A stretch of 64,000 nucleotides of DNA from Candidatus Latescibacterota bacterium (GCA_965248435.1 OZ252100.1:2080001-2144000); one strand, 5' to 3'; positions 32,475 through 35,400 are shown, counted from the first letter of the stretch. Notes: generated by a model from the letters alone, not told the origin. Translations and numbers: made by a program.

Positions 32475-35400
32475 CTAATTCTCTACCTCTAGTCCCACAA
32501 ATAACCGGCTGTATTCATCCGTGAGTGGATCAATTTCGCTCTTATGGGCTGCTCGGGCGAACACCACCCCCGGATTTTCGGACCGCCGTGCGCGCGCCAA
32601 CACGTGATAGCCGCCAGGCGCACTCTGTGTCTCCAGGTCGCGATTGATCTCCGCCATCTCCACCAGCATGTTGGCCAACCCCCATCTAGCGCCAATCGTT
32701 CGCGTCAGAATCTCCTCAGCCGCCAATCCTTCCCGAAATCCGTGCTTCAACGGGATCAATCCGCCCGTTACTGTCCGCGCCGCGCCCTGGGGGGCAACGG
32801 TCTGCCTCAACTGTTGCCAGCTACCGCGAGCACCAGATGCACACAGCATGGCGAGGACGCCGAAAGCGTCATCTTCAAACGACCTGAACGCCGAAAGTTC
32901 CGCGACCACTTCATCCGGATAGGCCTCCCAGGCATCCAGATCGTCTCCTTTCGGAGGCTCTGGAAGACTGAGCCGTGAGCCAACAAAGGCGCTCATCGAC
33001 CCACCCGTTCCGCTGGCGGCCTCAAACCCTTTCTGCCATAATCGCTCGGAAAGGTCCAGTGCTGCTTCTGCCCCGTCTCTTGCCATCACTTGTGCCATCA
33101 GGGTAATGATGGTGTTTTTGTCGATGAACTCTCCCTGTATCTCAATCGGCTCAGCGGCGATCGCCTCGATCTGCTTGCGTCCCTCTTCCGTTGTGCTCAA
33201 GTGAGCGAGTCCGAACAGGGCATCGCTCATCGGATGCATTCTACTGCGCGCAATCAAGCTCGGGTCTCGCTTCAAATGAGCGGCTGCGGTTAGAGCGTCT
33301 CTGGCCGACTGCTGCCCCGCCTCCGTGACGGGCACGAAGACTGCGACCTGATCGCCGTCAAAATCCAGATCCATCATCTTGCAGATCGCCGGCGGGACTC
33401 GAATCGCATCCCCCTCCGCTCGTTCGGGTCGGCAGGCGACAAAGCACGTGGGAGATATGGCCGGAATACGAAACAGAATCGCCCACATCTGCGACAACGT
33501 TTCATCCAGCGCCTTCTCTGCCTTTTTCGAGCGTTTCTCCACCTCGGACGTGCCCACTTTGCGTGCGGCAAACGGGCCGAACAGCGTCCAGGCCATCTCT
33601 TCAGGCAAACCCACTCGATCGAAGCGCATTCCTGGACCCGGCGCAGCGACAGCGCGGCCGCTGAACAGCGCCTGACTCTGAAACCGAAGGTCTTCTGGTG
33701 ACAGCAGTTCGTTATAAAAAGCCTTAACACGATCCGACAGCGTATCTGCAGCCCGTTCGATAAGCACGTCGGGCGCATCGTTCTCGATCATCTGAGCCAA
33801 ACGATCATTCGCCTCCCTTAAAGACGCATTTGCACTGGAATCGCTTTCGCCGACGTGGGTCAGTGGGTGTGCGGACAACCAGGGGTGGGGCACGGGACGG
33901 GCCAGCTTCAGCGTACCTTCCGGTTTTACCGAGAATGTGGCACCTTTCTCATTCAGCGAGACGACCACACCGTCAGAAGCCAACCGCTCCGTCAATCGCG
34001 AAAACACCGGCGCAGGGGGATCGACTTGACTCACATGCCCTTCGGCCAAACGATCGGCCAGGGTATCGGCATCCTTCCGGTCCACGGAACAGGTGTTGAA
34101 AAGATCCCGGATCACTTCAGCAGCCCCCCCCTCTTTCAGCGCAAGAAATTCCATCTCGCCCAGTGACTGAGCTTGCTCTCCGATTCGTGTCCCCGCGCGA
34201 ATCTTCAGCGCGGCCAAATGTTCCGTGCGCCCCCAATAGACCCATCCCGCTGTCGTTCGACGCTTCAGCGCTTCACCGCCTACCTTCAACAGTTCCATTC
34301 CCTCCTCGGGCAGACCATTCGCCTTCAATCGTCTTTGAATCTCCTCGTCTCTTGGAGCACAGAACGGCGGCACAATCACCGGCTGGCCCTCGACCTTCGC
34401 GATCCGTCCGACGACCGCCTCACGAACCTGCCCGATATTCATCCGTGAAGGCAGGCTGCACACGCTCACAATCAGCTCCACGGCAGTTCCATCCTGCAAG
34501 GCCGGCATCTCGGCATCCGGCAGGATCCGAGACACAACCCCCTTCGTGCCGTGGCGATTGCTGATCTTGTCTCCGACCGCGATCCGGTTTGGCAGCATCA
34601 TACGATTCGCAGCCGATTCACTGATCACAATGGCATCTTCGTGCGTATCGCCGTTCCAGGCCATAAACGCCGTGAGTAGATTGTAGCCTGTCCAGAAGTA
34701 GGGATAATCCGGCTCTAATCCAGTCTGCACGAGCGCGGGCTCAGATTCCGGTTCTGCCCCGTCGTATTGCGCTTGAAACTCCTTCCAAGCTCGAAAGTCG
34801 GCGCCTCTCGTGTAGTCGTTCCAGGCCTCCAGGTCGTCTCGCGGCATATCGGGTGAGGGCGGCCCCACCCATTGCCGCATCATGTTCACGCCCATCAATG
34901 CTCGGTTCGTATCATCGTGCTCCAGAAAGGGCACCATGGAGGCTCCTAACCCCAACCGCTTCTCGGGTGCTTCGTCTTCGATTACCAGCTTGCCGTCCCG
35001 GATCGCGGCCCCCTGCGCAACCTCCAGAATCCGATTGATGTTCGGCCCTTCCGCCGTGCAATACGGACAGACACGGCCCTCGTGTGAGGCATCCAATAGA
35101 TTGGTCGCATCCCTGGCTTGACCAAGGACGGGGATGAGCGTGATCCGCCGGAGATGGGTGTGCATGTCCAGCCAATTCGCTCTCTGCAGATACTGAGATG
35201 TAGATTGGTGCTCGAAGAATTCCCGAATCCAGTCCCCCAGCGGCATCCACGTCCTTACCGATTCCGCATCGTCCAGTCCCGGAGGGAAATCCGTCAACCT
35301 TTCAGCCAGAAAATCGAGCAGCTGTTCGCCCACACAGCGAATCTCGGCCTTCTCCAGATTCAACTCCGTCGGGACCGGAATCACGGTTCGAAACAATCCG

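Follow-up and report, generated by a model that had tools for sequence, protein, structure and literature searches.

Bacterial RNA polymerase (RNAP) is regarded as an invariant core of ~400 kDa, and the locus described here raises the question of whether a far smaller version of this enzyme, encoded by a single gene next to a sigma factor gene, could form a sigma-dependent transcription machine of its own. The locus lies in a stretch of 64,000 nucleotides from Candidatus Latescibacterota bacterium (GCA_965248435.1, OZ252100.1:2080001–2144000), hereafter referred to as the window, from the first letter of which positions are counted. The original prediction, made from the DNA sequence alone, had identified a "mini-RNAP" lacking the flap, the zinc domain and the trigger loop, but retaining the clamp helices that bind sigma. 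All the motif strings quoted in it are present in the open reading frame (ORF) at 32475–35771(−), which has 1,098 codons (P0001) and contains the mini-RNAP reading frame. The members of the family are 1,000–1,060 aa long and start at the residue equivalent to Met51 of this ORF, and a ribosome-binding site (RBS; GGAGGA) precedes the ATG at 35621. The product is therefore a protein of 1,048 aa (P0002) starting at M51, and the gene, including its stop codon, extends over 32475–35621(−), an assignment that also draws on the Pfam and solved-chain matches given below; residue numbers refer to P0002 unless P0001 is specified. The alignments show that this protein is an end-to-end beta/beta' fusion from which peripheral modules have been cleanly excised. 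The gene upstream encodes a sigma factor of the extracytoplasmic function (ECF) class, and we estimate at roughly 0.5 the probability that this ECF is the initiation factor of the mini-RNAP, with its region 2 (sigma2) placed on the retained clamp helices.

The single chain contains the Pfam domains Rpb2_3, Rpb2_6 (9e-38) and Rpb1_2 (1.4e-10). In phmmer comparisons with solved structures it matched bacterial RpoB (E 8e-47) and RpoC (2e-25), with lower matches to archaeal subunits. When the family profile was compared with the E. coli proteins by hhalign, the first half aligned to RpoB (probability 100, E 1.5e-50) and the second half to RpoC (389 columns, probability 99.9, E 1.6e-33), the latter alignment spanning the clamp helices, switch 2, DFDGD and the SGARG block up to the bridge helix at E. 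coli beta' 789. The protein belongs to the two-barrel (double-psi beta-barrel) superfamily, both defining motifs of which (DxDxD and two basic residues) are present. It is encoded by an extra gene, since the host genome carries ordinary rpoB and rpoC genes 3.3 Mb away. The scores obtained with the NCBIfam models for RpoB (TIGR02013, 185.9 bits; cut-off 801.15) and RpoC (TIGR02386, 115.5 bits; cut-off 963.5) are far below the cut-offs, and the flap, lobe, zinc ribbon and trigger loop are missing, so the mini-RNAP is not a canonical RpoB or RpoC. In common with RpoB/RpoC it has two double-psi barrels, which carry DFDGD and GDK..K, along with the fork, switch 2 and the clamp and bridge helices. 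However, it consists of one chain of 1,048 aa rather than two (1,262 and 1,363 aa in the host), it lacks the lobe, flap, zinc ribbon, rudder, trigger loop and jaw, and it is accessory and patchily distributed. Natural full-length beta::beta' fusions (NF007172 and NF011417; ~2,840–2,890 positions) have the same order, beta followed by beta', but they keep all domains, and the mini-RNAP scores 181–185 bits against their cut-offs of 4,632–5,372. Members of the family are annotated as "hypothetical protein" in the source records, and the Atlas cluster name is "DNA-directed RNA polymerase family protein" or "hypothetical protein"; the Atlas feature neighbours of the homologue P0095 are unnamed or generic clusters of ~1,006–1,787 aa with PF00562 and PF00623.

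Conservation was assessed in an alignment of P0002 with 66 of 150 listed relatives, hand-picked for near-full length, which excludes most fragments and four proteins of 1,948–2,522 aa. The counts below are for these 67 sequences. The catalytic motifs are strongly conserved: in DFDGD, at residues 753–757 (P0001 803), D753 and D755 are each present in 65 sequences and D757 in 64, and in GDKxxNRHGxKG the counts are 67 for G350, 61 for K352, 67 for R356, 64 for H357 and 63 for K360. The ED pair expected to bind Mg (E328, 59/67; D329, 61/67) and residues R240 (66/67), N246 (64/67), R249 (66/67) and R718 (57/67) are also conserved. By its motifs, the mini-RNAP is thus predicted to be catalytically competent. 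The residue preceding DFDGD varies, with N in 39 and D in 18 of the sequences; it is D in the window's protein (33357–33359, P0002 residue 751) and N in canonical beta', in which this asparagine contacts the ribose of the incoming nucleotide. Substrate choice may therefore differ between clades.

What is kept, as judged from these alignments, comprises both barrels with the residues that bind Mg and NTP, as well as switch 2 and the fork region, the clamp and bridge helices, and a highly conserved C-terminal tail, all of it encoded on the minus strand. The names and residue ranges used for the E. coli flap, rudder, clamp helices and trigger loop are those that we take to apply. Residues 1–92 (35346–35621) correspond to a remnant of the beta N terminus (E. 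coli beta 24–150, with an internal gap), as indicated by hhalign, hidden Markov model (HMM) and BLASTP matches, after which the lobe is missing. They are followed by the beta fork region (Rpb2_3) and the FLEHDD..MGxNMxRQ block at residues 93–252 (34866–35345), equivalent to host beta 422–531 and 604–640. An insert at residues 253–291 (34749–34865) is specific to the window's clade, as seen from segment lengths and conservation (0.06), and has no match in canonical beta; the segment from FLEHDD to HEDAIV has 95 residues here, versus a family median of 59. Residues 341–349 (34575–34601), between the ED and GDK blocks, form the scar of flap excision, and residues 350–555 (33957–34574) comprise the second half of the beta-type barrel, with GDKxxNRHGxKG at 34539–34574, and the beta C-terminal region (host beta 1030–1249, 33% identity, E 2e-28).

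The beta/beta' junction occupies residues 556–597 (33831–33956) and consists of a short linker, with no zinc motif, running into a 13-residue block (P0001 619) that resembles beta' GHIELA..HIW, in which H579 (64/67), P580 (67/67) and W581 (66/67) are nearly invariant. The clamp helices, a coiled coil, follow at residues 598–640 (33702–33830) and include an 18-residue block (P0001 654) and LSDRV (P0001 678). Residues 641–765 (33327–33701) contain a probable rudder scar, seen as an hhalign gap, a switch-2-like FSGR block and the beta'-type barrel with DFDGD (33351–33365). Residues 766–995 (32637–33326) correspond to a shortened dock/funnel, the SGARG block and the bridge helix (GARWGLA..., P0001 1027), and align to E. 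coli beta' as far as 789 and host beta' as far as 770. The last segment, residues 996–1048 (32478–32636), consists of a 20-residue stub (VLARAxRS) and the conserved sequence PGxVFARAA..GExDPL..SRLFVG, between which the trigger loop, jaw and second zinc site would fall, as judged by conservation and motif counts. The tail (1016–1044) is the best-conserved segment of the mini-RNAP (0.72 versus 0.50 overall). In the basic stub, R1010 and A1011 are near-invariant (65/67 and 66/67), and one might speculate that it substitutes for the trigger loop.

The original prediction held that the beta C terminus runs into the GHIELA-like block, skipping the beta' zinc domain, and that a beta' C-terminal-like block closes the chain. 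The first part of this is borne out by the four-cysteine zinc motif, found in none of the 67 sequences and at residues 66–84 of host beta'; however, the identity of the junction block is only weakly indicated (hhalign E 0.006, probability 6%, mapping to beta' ~81–132). Similarly, the tail falls at a constant distance (50–70 residues) from the C-terminal end of over 20 canonical beta' proteins, although residues 1016–1037 match each of them weakly (hhalign E 0.05, probability 1%; HMM E 0.03–0.7). Both matches are collinear with beta' and recur at one place in more than 20 canonical beta' sequences.

The absence of flap and trigger-loop equivalents was judged by alignments, motif counts and residue accounting. 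HEDAIVIS (P0001 377) and GDK (P0001 400) are separated by 15 residues, as had been estimated. In BLASTP comparisons with host RpoB (P0122), residues 312–335 aligned to beta 749–772 and residues 346–549 to beta 1030–1249, from which it follows that ~257 host beta residues (773–1029) are replaced by ~10 in the mini-RNAP. The hhalign comparison with E. coli RpoB revealed a matching gap at ~826–1057, which we take to be the flap, including a lineage-specific insert. A flap-tip motif derived from the host sequence was found in none of the 67 family members, versus 22 of 30 canonical beta sequences in addition to the host. The trigger-loop motif (GEPGTQ type), also predicted to be missing after GARWGLA, was likewise found in 0/67 members, versus 30/30 canonical beta' sequences plus the host, and the distance from the bridge-helix anchor to the C-terminal end is 65–86 residues (median 72) in the family versus 608 in host beta'.

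The losses extend beyond those originally listed, to the beta lobe, beta ~708–790, the rudder and everything after the bridge helix. Residues 1–85 match E. coli beta 24–150 (hhalign sub-alignment against 30 canonical beta sequences: probability 90%, E 1.6e-6), and an HMM of this remnant matches canonical beta at ~30–160 (E 4e-6 to 1e-3). The beta alignment restarts only at 422 (host) or 444 (E. coli), so the lobe has been lost, and only ~85 residues remain of the lobe and protrusion, which occupy the ~440 N-terminal residues of the canonical subunit. Beta ~708–790 is also missing. A gap of ~25 residues relative to host and E. coli beta', presumably the rudder, follows the clamp helices, and the stretch between DFDGD and the bridge helix is shortened (176 residues from DFDGD to SGARG here; family median 174). 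Altogether, the alignments show the loss of the beta lobe, beta ~708–790, the whole flap, the beta' zinc ribbon with the N-terminal part of the clamp, the rudder, part of the dock/funnel and, except for the last ~35 residues, everything beyond the bridge helix, including the trigger loop, the jaw and the second zinc site. Of beta and beta' taken together, ~60% of the length is absent. It had been set beforehand, as a check, that the deletion endpoints be compared in an alignment of homologues, and they are conserved in the 67 representatives, the lengths of the segments between anchors being near constant (HEDAIV to GDK: 23 residues at both median and minimum, maximum 44).

Such a reduction might indicate that the mini-RNAP is not a DNA-dependent transcriptase at all, but an enzyme that copies RNA or single-stranded DNA, or one that produces primers or short oligonucleotides, with the ECF controlling only its expression. 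We consider this improbable: the fork, switch 2, clamp helices and bridge helix, which handle the DNA bubble and the RNA-DNA hybrid, retain their bacterial form, and the barrel is 33% identical to that of RpoB. The idea is favoured by the loss of parts of the cleft that hold DNA (the lobe, much of the clamp, the jaw and the rudder), by the variable residue before DFDGD and the absence of a detectable regulon, and by the existence of RNA-dependent polymerases among single-chain two-barrel enzymes (PMC7824862), QDE-1 being an example.

We also weighed the possibility that the gene is a decaying rpoB-rpoC duplicate or an assembly chimera, as might be suggested by its odd length and by four relatives with a frameshift or an in-frame stop codon (G220, G081, G181 and G007-type matches). 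This reading is refuted. The ORF is intact, there are hundreds of homologues of equal length with the same deletion endpoints, full-length relatives reach down to ~35% identity among the matches listed, and dN/dS was 0.108–0.199 in all 28 pairs among eight close genes; the gene also has its own promoter, RBS and partner gene, in a genome with a separate, normal rpoBC. The mini-RNAP family is therefore real and under purifying selection. Of the broken copies, one (G220:C2, locus L134, 1487–4605) has a frameshift just before the PVPHPW block, and the other two (G081:C156 and G181:C330) have an in-frame TAG in one case and an in-frame TGA in the other. A split-gene form considered for G220 was rejected, as it is a frameshift.

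The gene was found in 65 of the 168 genomes of the window's phylum, in 32 of the 176 genomes from the phylum to which a record titled Candidatus Poribacteria belongs, and in one Caldilineaceae record. Only two of the 21 other genomes of the window's family have it, whereas in one genus of a neighbouring family it is present in 21 of 21. In the FastTree phylogeny, the window's copy grouped with copies from other families (support 100) and not with the two from its own family, and the Poribacteria-titled and Caldilineaceae copies nested within those of the window's phylum. This disagreement between the mini-RNAP tree and taxonomy points to a history of horizontal transfer combined with loss. No full-length relative (at least 80% of the query) was found by tblastn in 50,697 phage records, or in 72,556 plasmid records. 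No family of the PADLOC defence models matched the mini-RNAP, and the ECF had only two matches at E ~0.009; among PHROGs, the mini-RNAP matched two unnamed families (~1,200 positions) and one named RNA polymerase beta subunit. Four further proteins (P0253, P0257, P0263 and P0264) and Atlas clusters near P0095 are unnamed proteins of ~1,160–2,520 aa with PF00562 and PF00623, and single-chain beta-beta' polymerases of several sizes thus appear to exist beyond this family.

The ECF gene (35662–36255(−); sigma2, a conserved linker and region 4, sigma4) probably starts at the TTG at 36255, behind an RBS-like AAGGGGA; the listed ORF reaches 36324, but the promoter falls inside this longer ORF and the start is therefore placed downstream of it. 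The protein matches Sigma70_r2 (6e-18) and Sigma70_r4_2 (1e-12) and scores 109.6 bits with TIGR02937 (cut-off 42.9), and it reaches no equivalog or subfamily cut-off. At 31 of the 36 places compared (the window and 35 loci), the gene directly upstream of the mini-RNAP gene, in the same orientation, is an orthologue. The other five had flanks of only 1.5 kb, and in two of these the 3' end of the ECF gene is visible where the locus stops, separated from the mini-RNAP gene by a 396-aa ORF. Among 41 related genomes, ECF orthologues (52–73% identity) are present in precisely the 20 that have the mini-RNAP, and nothing reaching E 1e-25 was found in the other 21, which also lack it; the genome with two mini-RNAPs has two orthologues, one adjoining each. 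The ECF and mini-RNAP trees have 18 of 25 splits in common, with a Mantel correlation of patristic distances (r 0.91) that was reached in none of 2000 permutations. The two genes are passed on together, both by descent and by horizontal transfer. The linker of the ECF, with its RRREQPL block, acidic run and PGWMID..GPD block, has conservation values of 0.74–0.76, versus 0.71 for sigma2 and sigma4. Judged by length, there were no ECF-mini-RNAP fusion proteins among the 120 and 150 best matches. No other ORF family, including any anti-sigma gene, was conserved beside the module in the 36 places, the remaining clusters being shadow frames or genus-specific neighbours.

The genome with two mini-RNAPs (G038:C1, 8.4 Mb) carries two complete modules from different clades, at 1427411–1431156 and 3367788–3371734; their mini-RNAPs are 49% and 42% identical to that of the window, each has its own ECF, and the promoter motif is present at at least one of them. 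The 396-aa ORF is found between the two genes in some genomes of one genus, overlapping the ECF stop codon (L092, 207–1397(+)), and an equivalent ORF fills the gap in L086, L090, L093, L094 and L114. It has sub-threshold matches to DUF6596 (E 0.03) and TPR (E 0.07) and none in NCBIfam, PADLOC or PHROGs, and it may be a lineage-specific regulator of the ECF.

The mini-RNAP gene and its dedicated ECF gene form an operon under an ECF-type promoter at 36277–36302(−), with TGAAC at 36302–36298, a 14-nt spacer and CGGTGTC at 36283–36277. Of 30 loci, 24 have TGAAC, 14 nt (13 in one locus) and (C/T)GGTGTC upstream of the ECF gene; in five others the second element reads GGCGTC or GGAGTC at equal spacing, and one (L008) has no site; the spacer sequence is not conserved between clades. 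The conventional -35/-10 arrangement of this one assignable promoter, with its fixed spacer, means that the unconventional promoter recognition envisaged in the original prediction is not required. In a genome-wide scan with a position weight matrix, which gave five matches scoring at least 20, the operon promoter was the top match (26.7), followed by one (22.9) inside a long ORF. The strict motif has 12 matches in the genome (~2.4 expected), six of which are one repeat in a repeated 448-aa ORF and five of which lie within long ORFs, leaving that of the operon as the only intergenic one. Five other genomes contain one to five exact matches each, close to the reversed-pattern control, and in four of them these include their own operon site. 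As there is no other good copy genome-wide, the operon itself is the only assignable target of the ECF. No conserved DNA element or convincing terminator was found downstream of the mini-RNAP gene, and no Rfam family inside the module. The four sequencing runs listed, which come from one study, contain DNA only.

These results could also be accommodated if the ECF served the host RNAP only, switching the operon on, and the mini-RNAP were the sole output, acting without sigma, as YonO does, on another template or promoter. We regard this as less likely than a role of the ECF as initiation factor of the mini-RNAP. In its architecture and fixed spacing the promoter suits a canonical ECF holoenzyme, the sigma2 and sigma4 domains of the ECF are ordinary ones, the dock for sigma4 on the flap is missing from the mini-RNAP, and a sole good promoter copy in front of the operon itself is typical of an autoregulated ECF with a co-transcribed effector; the single chain of YonO alone is reported to synthesise RNA (PMC5467207). 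However, a sigma-free enzyme leaves the retention of the clamp helices unexplained when nearly all other peripheral elements have been removed, and the lack of a conserved anti-sigma factor or other regulator would leave a positive loop with no visible control. Moreover, the linker of the ECF is unusually conserved, and the two proteins are never found apart in the 41 genomes compared.

The clamp helices, the canonical docking site of sigma region 2, are indeed kept, as originally proposed: residues 595–640 align to E. coli beta' 266–310 and host beta' 262–306 by hhalign (probability 99.9 for E. coli), and A604, N605, R607, L608, R610, P617, L620 and L628 are conserved within them. Their retention, together with the lack of an anti-sigma gene in the module, would also be expected if the mini-RNAP were mainly a sigma sink or decoy, an anti-sigma-like regulator derived from an RNAP fragment. 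We consider this very improbable, given that the catalytic ligands are conserved in 57–67 of the 67 sequences and that a chain of 1,048 residues, under purifying selection throughout, exceeds the needs of a decoy. Docking of sigma on the mini-RNAP is plausible, and it gains strong, though indirect, support from the adjacency of the two genes, their co-occurrence and their congruent trees.

We return here to the ECF as the proposed initiation factor of the mini-RNAP. In this mechanism, sigma2 would dock on the clamp helices (598–640) in a two-protein holoenzyme of ~140 kDa requiring neither alpha nor omega. Since the flap is absent, sigma4 must be placed otherwise, perhaps via the unusually conserved linker between sigma2 and sigma4. 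A broader proposal, which we advance tentatively and rate a little below even odds, is that the module is a horizontally mobile, self-sufficient machine composed of a 115-kDa core and an ECF, with its own promoter class and with no alpha, omega, flap or trigger loop, which would make it the smallest sigma-dependent RNAP known. Several observations weigh against the ECF acting with the mini-RNAP. The flap anchors sigma4 in canonical holoenzymes (PMC7824862), and it is absent here, yet the promoter has a canonical -35/-10 pair with fixed spacing, which is what the host core with the ECF would read. There are two ways out of this difficulty: either another element of the mini-enzyme positions sigma4, the linker being the obvious candidate, or the promoter is read by the host core with the ECF and the mini-enzyme operates sigma-free. 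In addition, the clamp helices are less conserved than the whole protein (0.44 versus 0.50) and could be retained for structural reasons, a sigma-dependent mini-RNAP would be left with no visible target except its own operon, and the congruence of the trees demonstrates co-inheritance, which is expected of any two genes in one operon.

Comparison with known systems shows that several features of the mini-RNAP have precedents. The non-virion RNAPs of the jumbo phages phiKZ and AR9 resemble it in being reduced, beta/beta'-like enzymes with no alpha or omega and with a promoter-specificity subunit of their own. They differ in being phage-encoded, in consisting of four to five polypeptides with a specificity factor that is not an ECF, and in keeping the flap insert (PMC7824862). 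YonO, from the Bacillus prophage SPbeta, is similarly a single chain, of ~100 kDa, in which trigger-loop homology is lacking (PMC5467207), as is a flap insert (PMC7824862). However, it is reported to share only a few catalytic residues with multisubunit RNAPs (PMC5467207), whereas the mini-RNAP aligns to beta/beta' over ~800 residues and is therefore not YonO-like in sequence; the two are set apart by description also, YonO being phage-borne and the mini-RNAP chromosomal, in uncultured bacteria and tied to a sigma factor. According to the same report, YonO synthesises phosphodiester bonds as efficiently as multisubunit RNAP and is more processive, but it is less accurate and has no hydrolytic activity (PMC5467207). 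The suggestion that the mini-RNAP would be slow or non-processive does not follow, because an enzyme with no trigger-loop homology is reported to be as efficient as multisubunit RNAP; the loss of the trigger loop would probably make the mini-RNAP less accurate and devoid of proofreading, but not necessarily slow.

The closest analogue in design is Orf6 of the Kluyveromyces lactis killer plasmid pGKL2, an Rpb2::Rpb1 protein of 982 aa with the same fusion order and about half of the coding sequence deleted (PMC2919709), but this protein is of eukaryotic ancestry, has no sigma partner and keeps a flap-type insert (PMC7824862). NCgl1702 of Corynebacterium glutamicum (2,169 aa) is also a chromosomal bacterial fusion of two barrels; however, only ~40 of its residues are described as recognisably conserved (PMC2919709), whereas the mini-RNAP is of bacterial beta/beta' type throughout. 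The flap insert is said to be common to all cellular and killer-plasmid enzymes (PMC7824862). From its alignments, the mini-RNAP family is an exception to this universality, with the flap lost secondarily. No account of a fused mini beta-beta' polymerase linked to an ECF came to light in our literature searches, and a keyword search of the main text of the ECF reclassification (PMC7826278), the supplements of which could list such a neighbourhood, returned no mention.

A comparison with a genome of the same genus (G001), made for island borders, gave no information on them, as it identified only an aspartyl-tRNA-synthetase-like gene in common. Directly downstream of the mini-RNAP gene, a 147-aa ORF (31973–32416(−)) has only a "Recombinase" domain (PF07508, 2.4e-10); it has the look of a remnant, perhaps left by the event through which the module arrived. 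Encoded two genes downstream of the module is a 481-aa protein (30314–31759(−)) in which an N-terminal ECF sigma (Sigma70_r2 and r4_2) is fused to a long ankyrin-repeat region, which matches the ECF of the module weakly (42 bits) and is not a conserved neighbour in other loci. Further away, a BlaI-type repressor gene is followed by that of a 1,349-aa BlaR1/M56 protein (22686–27130(−)), the extension of which has propeller repeats, a carboxypeptidase-regulatory-like domain and a C-terminal thioredoxin/AhpC domain. On the other side, a lysine riboswitch (RF00168, 86.7 bits; 42282–42463(−)) lies upstream of a dihydrodipicolinate synthase gene (41004–42035), and a 1,094-aa ORF (46540–49824(+)) has no Pfam or PHROG match. 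The 448-aa ORF (50225–51571(+)) has no Pfam match and is part of a six-copy repeat, in which one 25-nt string recurs at positions 2131082, 5315065, 5350005, 5609426, 5367229 and 5318218 of contig C1; this repeat is probably an insertion sequence of an undescribed kind.

The family shows that a clearly bacterial beta/beta' enzyme can be pared down to 1,048 residues in a single chain that is selected in several phyla and tied to a sigma factor, and no smaller transcription enzyme that uses sigma may have been seen so far. If this is true, it would be a natural experiment on which parts of RNAP are dispensable for promoter-specific initiation. If the two proteins form a holoenzyme, a minimal machinery for sigma-dependent initiation and the placement of sigma4 with no flap would become testable, as would trigger-loop-free catalysis in an enzyme whose residues can be matched one by one to those of E. 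coli RNAP, and synthetic biology would gain from the pair a compact, orthogonal module for transcription. If all that the sigma factor does is switch the gene on, the mini-RNAP would still be a new cellular relative of the YonO-type polymerases.

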